From a virus (Duplodnaviria; Heunggongvirae; Uroviricota; Caudoviricetes), in IMG/VR virus record IMGVR_UViG_2663762992_000009: a stretch of 28,397 nucleotides of DNA, one strand, 5' to 3'. A program made the translations under genes and the position numbers. This document shows, in pieces, positions 7,468-27,197 of the stretch. The notes under the pieces were generated by a model that was given only the letters and a program-made list of their open reading frames with translations, made no database searches and was not told the origin of the DNA. Each line of letters starts with the position of its first letter. The first letter of the stretch is position 1.

Positions 7468-7543
<76 letters not shown>

Positions 7544-7546
7544 TTT

Positions 7547-7623
7547 TGGTGGCCCTTGCTGGACTTGAACCAGCGACCTGGCGATTATGAGTCGCACGCT
7601 CTGACCAACTGAGCTAAAGGGCC
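7547..7623 (-). tRNA. tRNA with CAU anticodon (Ile2-lysidine type or Met)
   Basis: Full cloverleaf on the minus strand: acceptor GGCCCTT/AAGGGCC, D-arm GCTC/GAGC, anticodon loop CTCATAA, T-arm GCTGG-TTCAAGT-CCAGC, CCA end; closely resembles the E. coli ileX sequence as I recall it. Confidence 0.85.
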
Positions 7624-8963: not shown

Positions 8964-9073
8964 GGAGGTAACGTATAAACGGCAGGTGCTTTAGATCAAG
9001 CTTTTTATCATGTCGGCGAAATGAAAAAGGGCTCACCGAAGTGAGCCCTGAATTACCGCCGTTTTCAATTTGC

Positions 9074-9166
9074 CGCAGTGCCGGGTGCCTCCCGATGGTA
9101 TTAACCGCAACGTCAACAGTGGAAGCGAAACCTGACGATGCCCCTACGCTAGTGGGATTCACTGCA
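9074..9166. repeat. repeat unit C (more diverged copy)
   Basis: 5' end gcagtgccgg and 3' end cgctagtgggattcactgca match units A and B with a few substitutions. Confidence 0.6.
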
Positions 9167-9372
9167 ACGGGGGGAACCTATTACCCGCAGACAGCGGCTG
9201 ACAAGATATTTATTTTGCTGAAATGCCAAAATGTGAATCTGCGCATATGAAATTAAACAGAACTTAAACAATTGCAGATACGAACTTGATAGGTTTATGA
9301 AGAAATTACTACGGTCCTCAGGCTTCCCCCTATGAAGCACTTAAGCCTCTTACCTTTTCCAATTGTGATTTT

Positions 9373-9807: not shown

Positions 9808-10347
9808 TCACACATTCCTATCAATGGAATCCCGTAGCGGGATATAAAGCATGTATTCAACCATATACAGCCATTGGTCGATTCGTCGCCGACAGGTAAC
9901 ATAACTCCAGTCAGGGTATTTTTCCTGAAGTTTCTCAGCTATCTTTCGCTTACTCATTCCCCGTCCTTCGTAACGCTGGTGAAGCAGTGCCTTTAGTGCG
10001 GGATGATCTGCCAGAACTGCCCCGATAACCCGGTCGATTATCAGTGCTTCAGAATCAGTACAGTATGCAAGGTAGCTTTTCTGCTTACCGTTCAATATCT
10101 CACGTAAAAATTGCTCCAGTTCAGGCCTGGTAGTGCCTGATTTTTTAAGCAGCCTGAGCGCATCACGGGCGCCTGTGCGGGTGATTTTTTTACTGACCAG
10201 CAACTGATTGAAGATATTTCCCGGATGGCCATTTCCGATATAAGACCAGCGCCCCCACATTCTTAGCTTTCCCTGTACCCATAACGTCTCAAGCGTAGTG
10301 AGACGAAGCATTTCACCAGGTTTACCTGTCGTGACCGGGTAGATCAT
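9808..10347 (-). CDS. late-gene antiterminator Q-like protein
   Basis: 179-aa ORF immediately upstream of the tRNA/lysis region and after the nin genes; basic C-terminal region with HTH-like character (KRKIAEKL ... RRRIDQWL); start overlaps the upstream gene's stop. Confidence 0.75.
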   Translation of the reverse strand: MIYPVTTGKPGEMLRLTTLETLWVQGKLRMWGRWSYIGNGHPGNIFNQLLVSKKITRTGARDALRLLKKSGTTRPELEQFLREILNGKQKSYLAYCTDSEALIIDRVIGAVLADHPALKALLHQRYEGRGMSKRKIAEKLQEKYPDWSYVTCRRRIDQWLYMVEYMLYIPLRDSIDRNV

Positions 10348-17145: not shown

Positions 17146-17580
17146 ATGAAAAAAAACAACGAATCAGCTCAATACGAGACTTCAGCCAGAAGGATCAAAC
17201 AGGTCCTGTATGAATTAGGCTGGAACCAAAGTCGCCTGGCTAAAGAAATTGGGGTTTCAGCTCAGGCGGTACAACAATGGGCAAAAGGTACTTCTCGACC
17301 GAATGGCCCTAATCTAACTCGACTTTCTGAAGTCACAAGCAAACCTGAAGCATGGTTTTTCAGTGATGTCAGCGGGTTATCTGAGAGTCATGCAGTACAT
17401 TTACCAGAAAGTAATGGTTCAGACTTTCTCCCGCTTAGCGATGAAGAGATCAGACTGCTAACTGTCTTCAGGAAATTTCCTTCTGTAGAGAGTAAAAACA
17501 TGCTGTTAGCGTTTGAGATGAGACTTCAGGAGATAAAAGAATACTATTCCAAATACGCTAATCCCAATAAAAACCGATAG
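17146..17580 (+). CDS. CI-like prophage repressor, HTH_XRE type, short form without a LexA-like peptidase S24 domain
   Basis: 144 aa; N-terminal HTH (NQSRLAKEIGVSAQAVQQWAKG); the C-terminal ~60 aa is too short for an S24 domain; divergently arranged to the cro-like gene. Confidence 0.8.
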   Translation: MKKNNESAQYETSARRIKQVLYELGWNQSRLAKEIGVSAQAVQQWAKGTSRPNGPNLTRLSEVTSKPEAWFFSDVSGLSESHAVHLPESNGSDFLPLSDEEIRLLTVFRKFPSVESKNMLLAFEMRLQEIKEYYSKYANPNKNR

Positions 17581-17648: not shown

Positions 17649-17746
17649 AAAACACTTAAATTTCATACAATTAAAAATTTTTAGTGATTTTCTCACTTTA
17701 AACACTTGTATTTATCAAATCCATTTTGTAGATTGATTGTACAAAT
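17649..17746. promoter_or_regulatory. left operator/promoter region (OL-like)
   Basis: Sites related to the OR repeats: acacttaaatttca (17651-), acacttgtatttatc (17702-), and the palindrome TTGTACAA (17738-17745). Confidence 0.45.
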
Positions 17747-17816
17747 CCTCTAGCAACACATGCGCGACAGGTAAACGTTCCGCCGACGGGCGTAAAACAA
17801 AGATGAGGACGACAGA

Positions 17817-18005
17817 GTGGACAAGACTGAACTGAAACACATTATCGCCCTGCTCCTGGAAGATGCAAAACGTCTTCAGCAGGTTGAACCAAATGCAGGC
17901 ACTGAGGCCCGCATATGGTTGGCTAATAAAACACTTAATTCATTCAGAGAGTTAAGCGGTTTTGCAAGAGGGTCAGGTATCTCTACCGAACACCAACTTT
18001 CTTAG
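17817..18005 (+). CDS. small hypothetical protein, first ORF of the early-left operon
   Basis: GTG start with GAGGA 7 nt upstream; 62 aa; overlaps the 3' end of a convergent minus-strand ORF, so one of the two may be spurious. Confidence 0.35.
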   Translation: MDKTELKHIIALLLEDAKRLQQVEPNAGTEARIWLANKTLNSFRELSGFARGSGISTEHQLS

Positions 18006-18171
18006 CTAGCGCCTCCATAATAATAGAATGTCGTTCGCTAAGAATGCCGATTGCCGCCCCGCAAAGTGCACACTGAACGAAGTGAATAATGTGACTGCAA
18101 TTTTTCACTGAGGAATTGGTTTTTAACTCAAAAGAAGTTGATGGGCATTTTGGACAGGTTGTTACAGCCAT
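17983..18171 (-). CDS. small zinc-ribbon protein (CxxC ... CxxC), Ogr/Delta-like architecture
   Basis: ATG at 18171 with a strong SD (GGAGGG, 6-nt spacing); Cys pairs CPKC and CALC separated by about 25 residues. Confidence 0.5.
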   Translation of the reverse strand: MAVTTCPKCPSTSFELKTNSSVKNCSHIIHFVQCALCGAAIGILSERHSIIMEALAKKVGVR

Positions 18172-18302
18172 ATTTTACCCTCCACGGGGTCGATGTTGGT
18201 GGAGTTCCCGACGGACGAGGTCGGGAATGTGCGCCGGACACAGGTATAAATCCGGCATACGAAATTCGTATCACATGCAGGATATGTATTTAAACACGAG
18301 CA

Positions 18303-18383
18303 CATAACCGAAAACGCACTACGCAGAACCTTCCTTGTCGGGTCTGTCGTTAAATTTACTGCGATAGTGCGTTTCCGGTTATG
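18303..18383. repeat. long imperfect inverted repeat (about 24-bp arms, 32-nt spacer)
   Basis: cataaccgaaaacgcactacgcag (18303-18326) is nearly complementary to ctgcgatagtgcgtttccggttatg (18359-18383). Confidence 0.6.
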
Positions 18384-18648
18384 AGTGAAAATCATAACAG
18401 TGCTGTGTGTAGTCTTTGACGGTATCCGTTAACAAAGTTTTCCTGGCTGATACCGTCCTTTTTCAGAATGAATTTTATAGTGTGGTGAATGCGGCTCAGC
18501 GCACGTGACACAGTTAAAAACATGTCAGTCCTTCATCTGTTGATGGGTGGGAATGTTCGTCGGCAGTAATGGTTAGCTGTTTACTGTCACCGGGAGGCAC
18601 CCGGCACCACACTCCAAAATTCATTGTGTTACCAGAATGGAGACAACT

Positions 18649-18939
18649 ATGCCAGTTACACCTGAAATAAAACAAAACTCAGACTGGATGCGGCGCAACA
18701 AATCTGAACAAACCGCCCCTGCCTGTAAGCCTGGTATTATTCAGAAAATATTAAGTACGCTGAACCAGAAAGGTGACCCCACCCTTATTCCTTGCGCTTA
18801 TTGTGGCAAAGCCATCAACAAAAGTGAAATCGTGGAGCATGAACTTATTTATATAAACGGAAGTCAGCTCGCAAGAAAAACGAATCTATATTGCAGTAAA
18901 CGATGTGCCGAATATGACCAGATGGCACATGAATCTTAA
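18649..18939 (+). CDS. small Cys-rich hypothetical protein (zinc-binding-like)
   Basis: ATG at 18649 with a GGAG SD (6-nt spacing); motifs CAYCGK and CSKRC. Confidence 0.5.
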   Translation: MPVTPEIKQNSDWMRRNKSEQTAPACKPGIIQKILSTLNQKGDPTLIPCAYCGKAINKSEIVEHELIYINGSQLARKTNLYCSKRCAEYDQMAHES

Positions 18940-19491: not shown

Positions 19492-22400
19492 ATGAGTGAT
19501 AAGAAAGAAGATTTCGCGCTGTACTGCCCTGTTAAAAATGAAGAGGCCAGGAAACGACTTGGAATAAAAGCAGGCTTTTTCTGGGCAACTGCAAAAAAAT
19601 TATCTGTGGCTGTTTCCCGCTGTATTGCTGCTATGGACGATAAGGGGTATGACGAGGATGACTTTAAAAAACCTGTTCGCGTCAATTACCCCGTCGTTAA
19701 CGACCTGCCTCCTGAAGGCGTGTTTGATACTGAATTCTGCAACCGTTACGAAAAAGGCGGTCAGGGTGGTATCACAATGGTACTTATCCCCGGCGCTGTT
19801 CCCGCCGATCCAATGCACGGCGAAGTCGGCAGGGATATTACTGGCAGCGGCAACGCAGACGCAGACGCAGACGCAGGCACAGACGCAGATAATGCTACGG
19901 ACAATACCGAAAGTACGCTCCTCCCCGCTTACGCTTATAACGTCAACGGCGAACTGATGTCGGAAGTGGAAAAGGAAATGTCGCAGCCTGTTTCAGGACT
20001 AAGTCTGCCACTTCGTTTCCTGGCGCAATTTAATAACGACTGTCCACAACATCAGGTCACACCAGAGCGTTTACGGGAGTTAAACCTTACAGAGCAGGAT
20101 CCCGACAGTCGTACCGGAACTATTTTACTCGCCATCCAGAACAGAAAGGAACAGCTCGAAAAACTGGACACAAAAAACCTGCATCCTTTGGCGACGTACA
20201 TTGAAAAAGTATTTCCCTGCGGAAAACGACCACAACTCAATGATGTCATTAATTTTATCGATGCCGTACTTAATACAGACTATGTCGATCGCGGACTGCT
20301 CGTTAAGGAATGGTGCGAAGGTCGTCGAGCCGCGTGCGTAGAGCATGTAACAGCACCAGAAACCAGGCGTGATAATACTGTGTCAGCGCAGACGGAAACG
20401 AAGACTACTGTCACTGAACGTCCGCGTCGTAGCGAAAAAACAACGCACCGGACGATTAATTATGAAATTGGCTGTGGCTTATATGACGGCGAGCTGGATC
20501 TTCATAACCTGAGGGAACCGCTGGATTTTGCGAAACGCATTATGGCGAAAGACCGGGAAGACTGGAAAGTATGGTCAGACACAATCAACTGCATCCCTGG
20601 CATCCTGAATTATGACCGCCAGACCATTATCGAGATGGTACGAAAAGCCCCCACCCCGACTTATCACAGTGCTGCACTGCGCCGCGAGTGGTGTGATTCT
20701 TATCTGCGAGCCTGGGGACGGCTCGATCCCGACTGGAGCCAGAGCGCCGCTGTCAAAACAGCAGAGTCACATGAAGATGTCTGTGCTGATATCAGGAAGG
20801 CCGGAAAGCGCCTGCGTGAAATTGAATCAGGAGTTGGGATCAATGAAGAAAAACAGACGACACAGGGAGAACTGGCAGATGAACCGTCAGCGCCTGAATC
20901 AGTGGAACCGGCTTCAGCTGAACATCAGCAGAATACGCAGCCGCTGGATGCTGAGGCATCTGTAAACACCACTAAAACGGAATTCGATGTATTTGCTCTA
21001 ATGCAGAACTCATCTGTTTATGGCAGCAAAAACACACAGGAGACGACCAGCAATGTGCAGGTTCAGGACGCTGAAAAGGATGAAAAACAGGCTGGTACTG
21101 AAGTTCAGTCAGGCGAAAGCAGTCTGGGAACTGGTGAAGAGTCAGATACCAGACAGCAAGCCGATGTAAACCAGAATACGGATTCTGTCGCCCAAAATAG
21201 CGATTCTGTAAACCAAACTGAACCAGTTTTGGCACAAACCGAGCCAGAAGTGCAATCTGACGAACCGGCTGTTGTTTACCCCGCTTACTTCGAACCAGGC
21301 CGCTATGAGGGTCTGCCGAACGAGGTTTATCACGCAGCCAACGGTATCAGCTCGACAATGGTAAAAGATGCGCGGGTGAGCCTGATGTACTTCAATGCGC
21401 GCCACGTAGAGAAAACCATTATCAAAGAACGCTCTCCTGTACTGGATATCGGTAACCTGGTGCATGCACTGGCGTTGCAGCCAGATCAACTCGATGAAGA
21501 ATTCAGCATTGAACCCGTAATTCCGGAAGGTGCATTTACCACCACGGCAACGATCCGCGCGTTTATTGATGAGCACAACGCCAGCCTGACAGCGATGCTG
21601 TCAGCCGACGACATCAAAGCACTGTTAGAAGAGTACAACGCCACCCTTCCTGCTCAGGTTCAGTTAGGTGGTTCCGTGGAGGAAACTGGCCAGAGCTATA
21701 TGTCGCTGCCAGAAGAGTTCCAGCGTCTCGAAGCGGACAAGAAGCAGACCGCAGCGGCAATGAAAGCCTGCATCAAGGAATACAACACCACACTGCCTGC
21801 ACAAGTGAAAATCAGCGGTAGCCGTGATGCGTTACTCGAGCAGTTAGCAATCATCAATCCTGACCTGGTGGCGCAGGAAGCGCAGAAGCCCGCGCAGTTG
21901 AAAGTGTCCGGCACCAAAGCGGATCTGATTCAGGCCGTGAAGTCTGTTAATCCTGATGCCATCTTCGCCGACGAACTGCTGGATGCGTGGCGCGAAAATA
22001 CGCAAGGGAAAGTGCTGGTCACCCGCCAGCAACTGAGCACTGCACTGAGCATTCAGAAAGCCCTGCTCGAGCACCCTACAGCGGGCAAGCTACTGACACA
22101 CCCGAGCCGCGCCGTTGAGGTGAGCTACTTCGGTTTTGACGACGAAACCGGTCTGGAAGTCCGCGTTCGTCCCGACCTTGAGATCGATCTTGACGGGGTG
22201 CGCATCGGCGCCGACCTGAAAACCATCAGCATGTGGAACATTAAACAGGAAGGTCTGCGCGCCAAACTGCACCGCGAAATCATCGACCGTGACTACCACC
22301 TGAGTGCTGCCATGTATTGCGAGACCGCAGCGCTTGACCAGTTCTTCTGGATTTTCGTCAACAAAGACGAGAACTACCACTGGATCGCCATCATCGAGGC

Positions 22401-22596
22401 ATCCGCCGAACTTCTGGAACTGGGCATGCTGGAGTACCGCAAGGCAATGCGCGCCATCGCTACCGGCTTTGACACTGGCGAGTGGCCAGCGCCGATCACC
22501 TCCGGTAACTCCGATGAAATAGCCGACTACACCGACGAACTGAACGATTTCGACACACGCCGCCTTGAAGCGCTGCGTACGGCACAAGGGGAATGA
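19492..22596 (+). CDS. recE: RecE-like exonuclease VIII (C-terminal PD-(D/E)XK nuclease domain, long disordered N-terminal/central region)
   Basis: 1034 aa; C-terminal region carries the catalytic-type pattern RPDLEIDLDGVRIGADLKT; large acidic, low-complexity central region; followed by a translationally coupled annealing-protein-like gene; position matches Rac-type recE-recT order. Confidence 0.75.
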   Translation: MSDKKEDFALYCPVKNEEARKRLGIKAGFFWATAKKLSVAVSRCIAAMDDKGYDEDDFKKPVRVNYPVVNDLPPEGVFDTEFCNRYEKGGQGGITMVLIPGAVPADPMHGEVGRDITGSGNADADADAGTDADNATDNTESTLLPAYAYNVNGELMSEVEKEMSQPVSGLSLPLRFLAQFNNDCPQHQVTPERLRELNLTEQDPDSRTGTILLAIQNRKEQLEKLDTKNLHPLATYIEKVFPCGKRPQLNDVINFIDAVLNTDYVDRGLLVKEWCEGRRAACVEHVTAPETRRDNTVSAQTETKTTVTERPRRSEKTTHRTINYEIGCGLYDGELDLHNLREPLDFAKRIMAKDREDWKVWSDTINCIPGILNYDRQTIIEMVRKAPTPTYHSAALRREWCDSYLRAWGRLDPDWSQSAAVKTAESHEDVCADIRKAGKRLREIESGVGINEEKQTTQGELADEPSAPESVEPASAEHQQNTQPLDAEASVNTTKTEFDVFALMQNSSVYGSKNTQETTSNVQVQDAEKDEKQAGTEVQSGESSLGTGEESDTRQQADVNQNTDSVAQNSDSVNQTEPVLAQTEPEVQSDEPAVVYPAYFEPGRYEGLPNEVYHAANGISSTMVKDARVSLMYFNARHVEKTIIKERSPVLDIGNLVHALALQPDQLDEEFSIEPVIPEGAFTTTATIRAFIDEHNASLTAMLSADDIKALLEEYNATLPAQVQLGGSVEETGQSYMSLPEEFQRLEADKKQTAAAMKACIKEYNTTLPAQVKISGSRDALLEQLAIINPDLVAQEAQKPAQLKVSGTKADLIQAVKSVNPDAIFADELLDAWRENTQGKVLVTRQQLSTALSIQKALLEHPTAGKLLTHPSRAVEVSYFGFDDETGLEVRVRPDLEIDLDGVRIGADLKTISMWNIKQEGLRAKLHREIIDRDYHLSAAMYCETAALDQFFWIFVNKDENYHWIAIIEASAELLELGMLEYRKAMRAIATGFDTGEWPAPITSGNSDEIADYTDELNDFDTRRLEALRTAQGE
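19855..19890 (+). repeat. in-frame hexanucleotide tandem repeat (GCAGAC)n within the recE-like gene
   Basis: Six consecutive 6-nt units (gcagac x3, gcaggc, acagac, gcagat) encoding ADADADAGTDAD. Confidence 0.9.
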
Positions 22597-23648
22597 TGAT
22601 GGAAAAAAACAACGTAGCAGTAATTGAACATAACGAACCGAGCACGATGAATAACACATCCCTGCTTCTGAATATCGACGTCATGGATCGCATGATGAAG
22701 CTAGCAGAGGTGATGTCTCAGGGCGTCGCGACAGTACCGAAACATCTACAGGGAAGACCTTCTGATTGTCTGGCAATAATCATGCAGGCCGCTCGTTGGG
22801 GTATGGACCCATTTGTTGTAGGACAGAAAACACACCTGGTTAACGGGGCTCTGGGTTATGAAGCACAGCTTTACAACGCTTTAATCACCAGCTCCAAAGT
22901 TGTACACGGGCGCTTTAAATACGAGTACGGCGGTGAGTGGGAAAAAATTGTTGGCAAAAAAGACGGGCGTGATGAATCAGGTTTGTTTGTTCGTGTCGGA
23001 GCAGTTCTTCGAGGCGAGACAGAGGTGACCTGGGGAGAGCCAATTTACCTTGCTGATATTACTACGCGAAATTCCCCTTTGTGGAAAACCGCACCTAAAC
23101 AGCAAATAGGTTATTTGGCCGTTAAGTATTGGGCGAGGACTTACTGCCCTGAAGTCACAATGGGTGTTTATGACAGAGAAGATCTGGAACAACGAACAGA
23201 GCGCGAAATTAACCCTGCACCAATCCAACGAATGAGCGCTGCTGAAATCGCAGGTGACACCGTCACAACCACACAAAACACGCAGGAATCGTCAGTAAAT
23301 ATCGACTCACTGGCTGATGTTTTCCGCGAACGCATCAATGCTACGCAGGATGTAGACAGCGCCAAAGTAGTCCGGGCTGATATCGAAAGCGCGAAGGTCA
23401 CACTCGGTTCGGCTCTGTTCACCGAACTGAAAAACAAGGCAGTGAAGCGCTATTACCTGGTAGATCACCGCAACAAAGTTGAAGCCGCGATCAACTCCCT
23501 GCCGTCTCCGGACGAACCGAATGCAGCAGAACGGTTCGGAGAAGTTGAGCGAGCTCTTGCTGCGGCCAAACGTCACCTGGGTGACGAGCTGCACGATCAG
23601 TTCAGCATCACCCTGGCAGATATGAAACCGGAATACATCACTGCATAA
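22593..23648 (+). CDS. putative single-strand annealing protein partner of RecE (RecT/Red-beta superfamily, assigned mainly by synteny)
   Basis: Start overlaps the recE-like stop (ATGATGATGG, coupled translation); 351 aa with a globular N-terminal part and an acidic C-terminal tail; no specific motif identified by eye. Confidence 0.55.
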   Translation: MMMEKNNVAVIEHNEPSTMNNTSLLLNIDVMDRMMKLAEVMSQGVATVPKHLQGRPSDCLAIIMQAARWGMDPFVVGQKTHLVNGALGYEAQLYNALITSSKVVHGRFKYEYGGEWEKIVGKKDGRDESGLFVRVGAVLRGETEVTWGEPIYLADITTRNSPLWKTAPKQQIGYLAVKYWARTYCPEVTMGVYDREDLEQRTEREINPAPIQRMSAAEIAGDTVTTTQNTQESSVNIDSLADVFRERINATQDVDSAKVVRADIESAKVTLGSALFTELKNKAVKRYYLVDHRNKVEAAINSLPSPDEPNAAERFGEVERALAAAKRHLGDELHDQFSITLADMKPEYITA

Positions 23649-25949: not shown

Positions 25950-27197
25950 ATGGCTGCTTTACCAACAGGTGTAGAAATCAGAGGTAGTAGCATCTGTATC
26001 TGGTTTATGTACAGAGGAAAACGTTGCCGCGAAACTCTCAGAGGATGGAGCATAACACCTGCTAATATCAGAAAAGCAGGTAATCTGCGCTCAATTATCG
26101 TCAGTGAAATCAACATGGGCGAGTTCGACTACCAGACTCGCTTCCCATCCTCCAAAAAAGCAATAAAAATTGTCACTACGGTTTCAGTCAGAACTCTAGG
26201 CGAACTCTGTGATCTGTGGCTGTCGATAAAAGAGACTGAACTGGCGGCTAACACCTTGCGCAAAACCAGCTCGCAGCTCGACACGCTGAAATTCATTATC
26301 AATAAAAACACGCCACTTTCGACGATTCGCCACAGCGACATTCTGAACTACCGCAACGAGCTGCTAAACGGAGAGACAAATTACCGAAACGCCACGAGAG
26401 GAAATAAAACCGGCCGTACCGCGCGCACGGTTGATAATTACATTTCCCTGCTCTGCTCCCTGCTCCGTTTTGCGCAGCACTCAGGGTTTATTAAGCACAA
26501 ACCTTTTGAGGGGGTTCGGAAGCTGCAAAAAGCCCGGATCAAACCGGACCCGCTCACAAAGCAGGAGTTTGCACAGTTGATGGAAGCAGAATACGGCCAG
26601 AGCCAGAATCTGTGGAAATTTGCAGTATATACGGGCCTTCGTCATGGTGAACTTGCTGCGCTGGCGTGGGAGGATGTGGATCTCGAGGCGGGAACAGTCA
26701 GCGTGTGCCGTAATCTGACCATTATCGGTACCTTCGGGCCGCCAAAGACAGATGCAGGCTACCGGACAATAAAGCTGCTGGAACCTGCGTTGGAAGCGTT
26801 GAAAGCACAGCGTGAACTTACCGCCCTCCAGCCAAAGTCAAAAATCGTTTTTAACCACCGTGAATATGGAAGGACAGAAACCCAGCGCGTGCACTTTGTT
26901 TTCATGCCAAGGATGCGTAAAGGCGAGCAAAAACCGTATTACAGCGTATCGAGCATCGGGCACCGTTGGAACGCTGCCGTAAAACGTGCTGGCATTCGTC
27001 GTCGGAATCCATATCACACACGGCATACTTTCGCCTGCTGGTTGTTATCCGCCGGTGCAAACCCGTCGTTTATCGCAAGTCAGATGGGACATGAAAATGC
27101 ACAAATGGTTTATGAAGTATATGCAACATGGATGGATGATATGAACAAAGATCAAATTGAACTAATTAATAGAAACTTACTAAACTCTTTATTTTAA
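25950..27197 (+). CDS. int: tyrosine site-specific integrase (lambda/Rac IntR-like)
   Basis: 415 aa; N-terminal arm-binding-like region (LPTGVEIRGSSICIWFMYRGKRCRETL); catalytic signature GLRHGELAAL ... HTRHTFACWLLSAGANPSFIASQMGH ... VY (R, H-x-x-R, Y). Confidence 0.9.
   Translation: MAALPTGVEIRGSSICIWFMYRGKRCRETLRGWSITPANIRKAGNLRSIIVSEINMGEFDYQTRFPSSKKAIKIVTTVSVRTLGELCDLWLSIKETELAANTLRKTSSQLDTLKFIINKNTPLSTIRHSDILNYRNELLNGETNYRNATRGNKTGRTARTVDNYISLLCSLLRFAQHSGFIKHKPFEGVRKLQKARIKPDPLTKQEFAQLMEAEYGQSQNLWKFAVYTGLRHGELAALAWEDVDLEAGTVSVCRNLTIIGTFGPPKTDAGYRTIKLLEPALEALKAQRELTALQPKSKIVFNHREYGRTETQRVHFVFMPRMRKGEQKPYYSVSSIGHRWNAAVKRAGIRRRNPYHTRHTFACWLLSAGANPSFIASQMGHENAQMVYEVYATWMDDMNKDQIELINRNLLNSLF

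Follow-up and report, generated by a model that had tools for sequence, protein, structure and literature searches.

A conserved hairpin on the 5′ side of a KilS/DicF-type small RNA in a Rac/Qin-like prophage: a probable RNase III processing site

What role does a long inverted repeat play between the repressor gene and the recombination genes of a prophage? The repeat lies at 18303–18383 of a 28,397-nt caudoviral sequence (IMG/VR record IMGVR_UViG_2663762992_000009), the whole of which we call the window. A first-pass annotation had assigned it to a 465-bp noncoding gap of the early-left operon and had named three candidate functions: a binding site for a dimeric regulator, a structured RNA, and a recombination-related site. 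We weighed these candidates and others against fold statistics, homologous loci, covariation, and the processing described for the Qin and Rac prophages of Escherichia coli.

The window is a lambdoid prophage of Rac/Qin-like type. Its plus strand carries a cI-like HTH repressor gene (17146–17580), recE (19492–22596), recT (22593–23648), and an integrase gene (25950–27197), and there are also a divergent YdaS/Cro-like gene and a gene at the YdaT position. On the minus strand, a Q-like antiterminator gene (9808–10347) is followed by an STnc100 RNA (9018–9195; a true Rfam member at 66.2 bits). Between cI and cro there are operator-like TTGTAT..ACAA repeats, which recur at about 17695–17745. Because they recur there, we place a probable pL-like early-left promoter/operator region at 17690–17750 on the plus strand, about 550 nt upstream of the inverted repeat; its transcripts would carry both arms, which would put the repeat inside the early-left operon. 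The early-left location given by the first-pass annotation agrees with the flanking genes, the repeat lying between the cI-like repressor gene and recE/recT.

Within this operon, which runs from the cI-like repressor gene toward recE/recT, the gap (18172–18636) is bounded on the left by a minus-strand 62-aa ORF (17983–18171) and on the right by a plus-strand ORF (18637/18649–18939). The latter is the first gene past the leader and occupies the kil position (18649–18939, plus strand; 96 aa, phrog_6751); KilR was considered as the identity of its product and rejected, as the product has no KilR homology. A 77-aa minus-strand ORF across the repeat (18162–18395) was likewise rejected as coding: It has no Pfam match, and the loop lengths of homologous elements differ by non-multiples of three.

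The repeat itself sits where it was first noted and is as near-perfect as described, with arms of about 24 bp around a 32-nt spacer. On the plus strand, the 5′ arm (18303–18326; CATAACCGAAAACGCACTACGCAG) faces the 3′ arm (18359–18383; CTGCGATAGTGCGTTTCCGGTTATG) in a stem of 23 Watson–Crick pairs, one A·C mismatch (A18311 opposite C18375), and one bulged A (A18364). The 5′ arm, which is evident in the sequence, in the fold, and as columns 4–28 of the covarying alignment A3 described below, comprises in order a lower stem (CATAAC), CG, the unpaired conserved A18311, a 10-bp middle stem, and an upper stem (CGCAG). The 32-nt apical loop (18327–18358, plus strand) holds in its 3′ part a family-conserved motif, TGTCGTTAAATTT, including a −10-like TAAATT at 18351–18356; this loop motif is kept in most of the 31 aligned variants although the stems vary.

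The repeat is well beyond chance. In a repeat search, its ungapped core (18303–18321 with 18365–18383) is 95% complementary. Of inverted repeats with a length of 16 nt or more and arms no more than 150 nt apart, the 28.4-kb window contains just four, and the two best of these both lie in the gap. With up to three mismatches allowed, the arm motif is found in the window at the two arms only, against 0.01 occurrences expected from shuffles, and the 101-nt segment 18300–18400 folds at −35.3 kcal/mol (z = −5.26), with none of 200 shuffles folding as well. The hairpin does not resemble an intrinsic terminator: No T-run follows the stem, AGTGAAAATC coming after the first post-stem base, and a terminator scan makes no call at the stem. 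The initial judgment that the structure is too long for a terminator and lacks a U-tail was correct, and the true terminator lies 35 nt downstream.

Homologous elements are widespread. Megablast of 17900–18900 against phages and against E. coli genomes returned no match; a sensitive blastn search aligned the gap, at about 70% identity, with kilR-upstream sequence from more than 4,600 E. coli genomes and from Rac-like phages. In K-12 Rac, RefSeq places the sRNA KilS (b4833) at exactly the homologous position. Qin has the same hairpin upstream of dicF (1675–1757 in the coordinates of locus L165), in the syntenic order dicA–ydfABC–hairpin–DicF–leader–dicB. We scanned public genome and viral contigs twice, once with a seed pattern blind to the hairpin and once with a pattern that constrained nothing but the conserved lower portions of the two arms. 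The scans yielded 89 distinct hairpin sequences: 46 precede a KilS-type seed, 17 one of DicF type, and 26 other sequence. Across the hairpin region, one viral contig, L259, matches the window without a difference. The window shares with the Qin and Rac elements the invariant columns of both arms (GAA..CG / GCG..TCC.GTT) and the loop motif TGTCGTTAAAT. The position is also shared: in a pL-type operon, after the repressor gene and small ORFs, and before an sRNA, a leader, and a gene at the kil/dicB position.

Not every related prophage has the element. Type C loci carry the sRNA without the hairpin and lack about 85 nt exactly at its place, and type B loci have a different upstream structure; because both have the sRNA without the hairpin, the hairpin is not obligatory for such an sRNA. 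Presence and absence of the module between otherwise similar loci, as in the missing 85 nt of type C, would suit a mobile element or one related to recombination, be it a cruciform, a MITE-like insert, or a target of site-specific recombination. Yet the repeat is single copy in the window, it always keeps one position and one orientation with respect to the sRNA, it shows no evident target-site duplication, and its covariation pattern is that of an RNA. We regard the recombination-related function suggested by the first-pass annotation as improbable in the extreme.

The covariation comes from A3, an alignment of 31 diverse hairpin variants. Its 18-pair core is 98.2% paired; 10 pairs show double changes, and five never vary. 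None of 500 shuffles of this alignment reaches the observed pairing or covariation values, sliding one partner by 1–3 columns lowers pairing to 28–53%, and RNAalifold recovers exactly the same 18 pairs de novo. The upper stem is wholly different in sequence across about eight families and retains its complementarity (for example, ACTACGCAG, ATTTCCG, ACGGCGAAG, GTTCGC, and ATTCCGCC), and the window differs from its nearest family by three compensatory double substitutions. Conservation and covariation in homologous prophages, rightly proposed earlier as an informative check on the repeat, are both present, the covariation being seen in the 31 aligned variants.

The features that remain unpaired are conserved as well. 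The A·C mismatch is present in 31 of 31 variants, the 3′ arm has a conserved bulged base, and 28 of 31 variants have a bulged A in the 5′ arm, which the window is without; all three features break dyad symmetry. The pairing also has a direction. Non-Watson–Crick cells number 32 G·U on the plus strand versus 5 A·C (equivalent to G·U on the minus strand), counted as sequences rather than as independent events, and pairing in A3 is 98.2% read on the plus strand versus 93.4% on the minus. An earlier event-based wobble count on strand-neutral alignments of the arms gave a weak bias in the same direction, about 14 versus 9.

These observations bear directly on two DNA- or strand-level alternatives. 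If the arms were half-sites of a dimeric or tetrameric regulator, with the intervening DNA looped or bracketed by the protein, the dyad symmetry, the setting in a prophage regulatory region, and the flanking of a possible promoter would all be accounted for. Such an operator would not be expected to have at least eight different upper-stem sequences, all complementary, nor to conserve bulges and a mismatch that break its symmetry, and DNA recognition does not predict a G·U bias toward one strand. The arms are, moreover, unrelated to the TTGTAT..ACAA operator repeats of this prophage, and half-sites 56 bp apart center to center would be atypical. The dimeric-regulator site first suggested for the repeat is therefore very unlikely. 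Equally hard to sustain is a structure in minus-strand RNA, either in the 5′ UTR of the 62-aa ORF or in an antisense RNA to the sRNA. The minus strand does fold about as well as the plus strand (−59.4 versus −58.2 kcal/mol), and the only mismatch in the window would become G·U there. The family-wide pairing and wobble counts nevertheless favor the plus strand, Qin retains the hairpin without an adjoining minus-strand gene, and at PEC41-type loci a good minus-strand promoter read by eye between the ORF and the hairpin (TTTACC-16-TGGTATACT) would yield an mRNA that excludes the hairpin. We consider a minus-strand role highly improbable.

Because of the compensatory changes, the conserved asymmetry, and the one-sided G·U pairs, our data favor a helix in RNA transcribed in the operon sense over a protein operator or a minus-strand RNA. 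A double-stranded stem of about two turns, 23 bp in the window, has been kept by selection on the sense strand. The structured RNA, among the functions first proposed, is the one upheld by this analysis; the structure, its conservation, its covariation, and its strand are established here.

The surroundings of the helix are equally organized. The "noncoding gap" is the leader of the kil-position gene: It does lie between ORFs, but it is not empty, and contains an sRNA gene and a structured leader. Along the plus strand, the established order is hairpin, sRNA seed, terminator, STnc100-like leader, and gene. The seed (18401–18418; TGCTGTGTGTAGTCTTTG) is invariant in the family, and its 18 nt are identical to part of the 3′ region of E. 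coli RprA. The intrinsic terminator of the sRNA (18418–18463; GACGGTATC ... GATACCGTC followed by CTTTTT), defined by its fold, resembles the terminators of DicF and KilS. The STnc100-like structured leader (18457–18661) has a 24-nt long-range stem, 18464–18487 with 18605–18628, that corresponds to inverted repeat I1, and kilR and dicB are each preceded by a conserved form of the leader. The idea that it is an antiterminator RNA of the HK022 put type was considered and dropped, as Rfam shows nothing similar in the HK022 immunity region, itself a weak test.

At Rfam gathering thresholds, nothing matches in the gap, and we treat the subthreshold matches from a permissive scan of the plus strand as leads rather than memberships. 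RprA (RF00034) scores 30.1 bits at 18344–18465 against a gathering threshold of 70, and only the 18-nt seed stretch is common to the window sRNA and RprA. DicF (RF00039) scores 24.1 bits at 18404–18458 (E = 0.012; threshold 48), with a resemblance confined to the terminator half and a different seed. STnc100 (RF02076) scores 39.5 bits at 18457–18661 (threshold 47), with the 3′ terminator portion of the model left unmatched.

Two sequence hallmarks of the KilS family are found: the conserved seed UUGCUGUGUGUAGUC and, behind it, a Rho-independent terminator, both within the 5′ leader of a kil-position gene. Across alignments A1 and A2, TGCTGTGTGTAGTC is invariant, and at many loci the TGCTGTGTGTAGTC seed directly follows an STnc100-like structure. 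The window sRNA matches K-12 KilS at 73 of 98 positions (74%). On these similarities, the prophage is predicted to encode a KilS/DicF-family sRNA with an RprA-like seed.

Fold predictions also suggest how the hairpin and the sRNA could be related. In the fold of 18361–18466 (plus strand), GTTATGA (18378–18384) pairs with TCATAAC (18392–18398), and this small alternative hairpin could form when the 5′ arm is absent or has been cut off; the fold of K-12 KilS contains the homologous GUUGU/ACGAC hairpin. Between the sRNA seed and either arm, we found no convincing alternative pairing, only G·U-rich ones being possible.

Direct evidence for processing comes from Qin. DicF is cut out of the polycistronic dicBp transcript, as Ragunathan et al. 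(J Bacteriol 2023; PMC10448788) report in confirming and extending Faubladier et al. (1990). A 190-nt DicF species is gone in an rnc mutant and accumulates upon RNase E inactivation; primer extension places its 5′ end at an RNase III cut "between positions 813 and 814"; the authors detected no internal promoter; and upstream ydfA-containing transcripts disappear without RNase III (PMC10448788). The sequence in Fig. S1B of that paper begins within the Qin hairpin loop. The exact cut can be estimated in two ways, from the 190-nt length and from the "813/814" position. Counting 190 nt back from the DicF 3′ end (L165 1935–1940) reaches L165 1746–1751, GCGC|TTCCGG, in the 3′ arm beside the invariant A·C mismatch. 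If the long stem of the downstream leader (about L165 2080) marks the end of the 1,146-nt "ydfABC-dicF" transcript, this transcript would start at about 935, and 813/814 would fall at about 1747. The two estimates agree, and we infer that the cut falls in the 3′ arm of the homologous hairpin. The first-pass annotation had passed over this documented Qin site, along with the terminator 35 nt downstream of the repeat and the KilS/DicF-type sRNA beside it.

Rac adds supporting data of a different kind. In Table S1 of Gordon et al. (mBio 2017; PMC5371410), the entry for position 1418510, annotated "kilR-sieB intergenic," has 41 reads in an rnc mutant against two wild-type values of 0. On the Rac hairpin, this coordinate falls in the apical loop, 8 nt before the KilS 5′ end. 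The count of 41 is low in a table of about 2,000 rows, where a chance match within one 85-nt element would have a probability of a few per cent. KilS itself is Hfq dependent, verified by northern blot, and expressed in stationary phase as a discrete RNA of about 100 nt; it is made in the uninduced K-12 lysogen, and an RNase E site at 1418471 lies 4 nt before the conserved seed (PMC8175672). Its 5′ end, 1418502, was called a primary TSS (Bar et al. 2021; PMC8175672, Table S6). That end aligns to the top of the 3′ arm of the homologous Rac hairpin, 7 nt after the TAAATT within an extended −10, TGTTAAATT. Given the primary TSS call, the Rac sRNA may arise without the hairpin.

Judged by sequence homology, the window carries a diverged orthologue of two E. 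coli elements, the RNase III site that precedes DicF in Qin and the hairpin that precedes KilS in Rac. From these homologues, we conclude, with a probability of roughly 0.7, that the repeat is an RNase III processing hairpin on the 5′ side of an sRNA precursor. An early-left transcript from the pL-like promoter, sense to the kil-position gene, recE, and recT, would contain both arms, which would pair into a helix of about 23 bp with the conserved A·C mismatch and small bulges. RNase III would cut this helix, predicted from Qin homology to do so in the 3′ arm at about 18372–18378. The cut would separate the promoter-proximal RNA, which would keep a stem remnant, from a precursor, about 90 nt long, that would run to the terminator (18418–18463) and gain a 5′ monophosphate. 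The 3′-arm remnant GTTATGA would then refold with TCATAAC, and the monophosphate end together with the refolded remnant would let RNase E trim at about 18398, giving a mature KilS/DicF-family sRNA of about 65 nt with its seed exposed. Both activities are known from the E. coli homologues, and their cleavage and its position are transferred to the window by analogy.

The Rac TSS call raises a further possibility that is compatible with RNase III processing: a promoter within the loop, with TAAATT (18351–18356) as its −10, would make the hairpin a switch on transcript origin. Transcripts starting in the loop would have the 3′ arm only, as an unpaired leader, and would supply a lysogenic stationary-phase sRNA; pL read-through would have both arms, fold, and be cut by RNase III, so that the sRNA would have two routes of biogenesis. 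The K-12 KilS 5′ end is indeed listed as a TSS 7 nt after the extended −10, the motif TGTCGTTAAAT is kept across families with different stems, and KilS is produced in the uninduced K-12 lysogen. In Qin, by contrast, the 190-nt species is lost without RNase III and no internal promoter was found. The window has neither the TG extension nor a recognizable −35, a consensus scan finds no sigma-70 promoter in 17900–18900, and TAnnnT is not kept in several families (L077, L033, L099, and L227 types, for example). We consider a loop promoter possible but short of probable; it may offer a second, lineage-specific way to make the sRNA. Even so, the hairpin keeps its role, because the 5′ arm would be pointless without read-through transcripts.

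In its fullest form, this idea makes the element a dual-purpose sensor of transcript origin, with the loop promoter giving a hairpin-less sRNA in the quiescent lysogen and derepressed pL read-through being routed to RNase III. We find this doubtful. If true, lysogeny and induction would yield differently ended and differently active sRNA and kil-leader species, and the switch would be specified by the invariant A·C mismatch together with the conserved loop motif.

A hairpin acting without RNase III has also to be weighed. The stem might, for example, act as a pause or attenuator, keep Rho from loading in the kil leader, or protect the 3′ end of the upstream fragment. Rac kilR is under Rho/NusG-dependent termination and read-through, the kil leader is long and untranslated, and the loss of upstream ydfA transcripts in the rnc mutant implies that the stem affects stability. 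Set against this are the missing U-tail and the canonical terminator 35 nt downstream, a two-turn helix with internal mismatches that has the classical form of an RNase III substrate, the direct RNase III dependence in Qin, and the supporting data in Rac. As the sole explanation, an RNase III-independent signal is unlikely; as an added role of the hairpin, it is possible.

RNase III processing is thus the reading that we carry into a comparison with known systems. The processing site itself has been known since 1990, and the element represents no new kind of biology. No Rfam family covers the hairpin, and we found no description of it as a covarying structure in the literature examined; the words "hairpin" and "stem-loop" are absent from PMC10448788. 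The present analysis gives the RNase III site of the DicF/KilS family a covariation-supported structure.

The closest counterpart is the Qin dicBF RNase III site, with homologous arms, the same invariant A·C mismatch, and the same loop motif. The surroundings correspond as well: Both elements follow small pL-proximal ORFs and precede an sRNA of the Hfq-dependent kind that ends in an intrinsic terminator, then an STnc100-like leader and a cell-division or kil-position gene. The differences lie in spacing and cargo. The window sRNA begins 17 nt after the stem and has a KilS/RprA-type seed, whereas the Qin distance is 125 nt and the seed is that of DicF; the window also lacks the bulged A of the 5′ arm, and its downstream gene is unrelated to dicB.

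Rac KilS resembles the window in the sRNA (74% identical), seed, terminator type, and hairpin, and in the layout minus-strand gene, hairpin, sRNA, leader, and kil-position gene. In contrast, the K-12 loop has the extended −10 TGTTAAATT where the window reads CGTTAAATT, a TSS has been called in K-12 at the top of the 3′ arm, the upper stem differs in sequence and register, and the downstream protein of the window is not KilR.

Classical phage RNase III hairpins, such as those of the lambda N leader and sib and the T7 R1.1-type sites, form about two turns of double-stranded RNA in a polycistronic early transcript, with internal loops or bulges near the cut. The hairpin described here is unrelated to the lambda and T7 sites in sequence, and its product would be the precursor of a trans-acting Hfq sRNA rather than an mRNA with altered translation or decay.

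A last comparison is with StxS and STnc100. StxS is the PR′–tR′ short RNA of Stx phages, and its rpoS-activating seed region is shared with RprA (Sy et al. 2020; PMC7547250). Like these two, the window sRNA would be a prophage sRNA that arises as a by-product of operon control and is trimmed by RNase E to a 3′ seed-plus-terminator fragment. Unlike it, they are located at the late promoter downstream of Q rather than in the early-left operon, have no long simple hairpin, and have no reported involvement of RNase III. Taken together, hairpin, sRNA, terminator, and leader make the gap a compact cassette for RNA processing that is common to Rac, Qin, and many enterobacterial prophages, and sRNAs of the KilS, DicF, and StxS types appear as interchangeable modules behind a few conserved processing structures.

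The predicted sRNA that follows the long inverted repeat (arms 18303–18326 and 18359–18383) spans about 18361/18373–18463 and carries the seed TGCTGTGTGTAGTCTTTG at 18401–18418, all 18 nt of which also occur, by sequence comparison, in the 3′ region of the E. coli sRNA RprA. KilS, the sRNA of the K-12 prophage Rac, has 16 nt of this RprA-identical 18-nt stretch in common. StxS, an sRNA of Stx phages, reportedly uses the rpoS-activating seed region common to RprA, DsrA, and ArcZ (PMC7547250). Given the RprA-identical seed and the RprA-type seed region reported for StxS, KilS-family sRNAs may be prophage mimics of RprA. We found no paper stating that KilS is such a mimic.

The seed and terminator are found behind different upstream structures. 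In one arrangement (type B), seen in numerous prophages of E. coli and Shigella and in viral contigs (loci L052, L066, L075, L005, and others), seed TGCTGTGTGTAGTC and its terminator directly follow an STnc100-like structure, which stands in place of the long hairpin. In another (type C; e.g., L038 and L096), the same seed and terminator have neither the long hairpin nor an STnc100-like structure upstream. The seed–terminator module is shuffled from one upstream context to another. In many non-E. coli relatives (L007, L011, L012, L020, L043, and others, from Serratia, Citrobacter, Erwinia, and Izhakiella), the terminator loop contains a conserved insert, ...GGAGG..GAAGATAATGTTC..., that resembles a Shine-Dalgarno sequence plus ATG; this insert may represent a very short ORF or have a regulatory role.

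Downstream of the sRNA, the kil-position gene has an STnc100-like leader (18457–18661), which scores below threshold at 39.5 bits. A long-range 24-nt stem (18464–18487/18605–18628) closes this leader structure, which the regions upstream of kilR and dicB keep. RNase III site 1649470 (dicF–dicB), published as "known," falls within the Qin copy of the leader and corresponds to about 18495 in the window. By analogy with this Qin site, two RNase III substrates may flank the sRNA, the hairpin on one side and the leader on the other.

Two further hairpins, at 18213–18237 (TTCCCGAC/GTCGGGAA) and 18231–18257 (GCCGGA/TCCGGC), lie upstream of the repeat; Qin (L165, about 1583–1632) and the Rac-like loci of E. 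coli keep both of them, and the first shows compensatory changes (CTCCAC/GTGGAG). A 15-bp perfect palindrome, ATACGAAATTCGTAT (18258–18272), 30 nt upstream of the long hairpin, is not present in the E. coli homologues and bears no relation to the operator-like TTGTAT..ACAA repeats of this prophage.

A 62-aa ORF (17983–18171, minus strand) is embedded antisense within the early-left operon; it contains CxxC...CxxC motifs, gives weak Lar/zinc-ribbon-like Pfam matches, and matches phrog_9414. In K-12 Rac, sieB stands at this place. The annotation of E. coli Rac-like prophages (L001 and L002) includes small homologous ORFs on the minus strand.

Directly downstream of the gene for the Q-like antiterminator (9808–10347, minus strand) is a bona fide Rfam STnc100 (9018–9195, minus strand; 66 bits). 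Together with the kil-gene leader, it shows that one prophage carries related elements in its late and early-left operons alike. Downstream of this Q/STnc100 region are a tRNA-Met (7547–7623, minus strand) and then a second tRNA-like sequence (7479–7536, minus strand), which covers only Rfam model positions 8–63 and received no ARAGORN call. The STnc100 occupies the place of lambda 6S and StxS, the short leader RNAs between PR′ and tR′, and the arrangement at 7479–7623 recalls the tRNA genes that Stx phages carry in their late leader.
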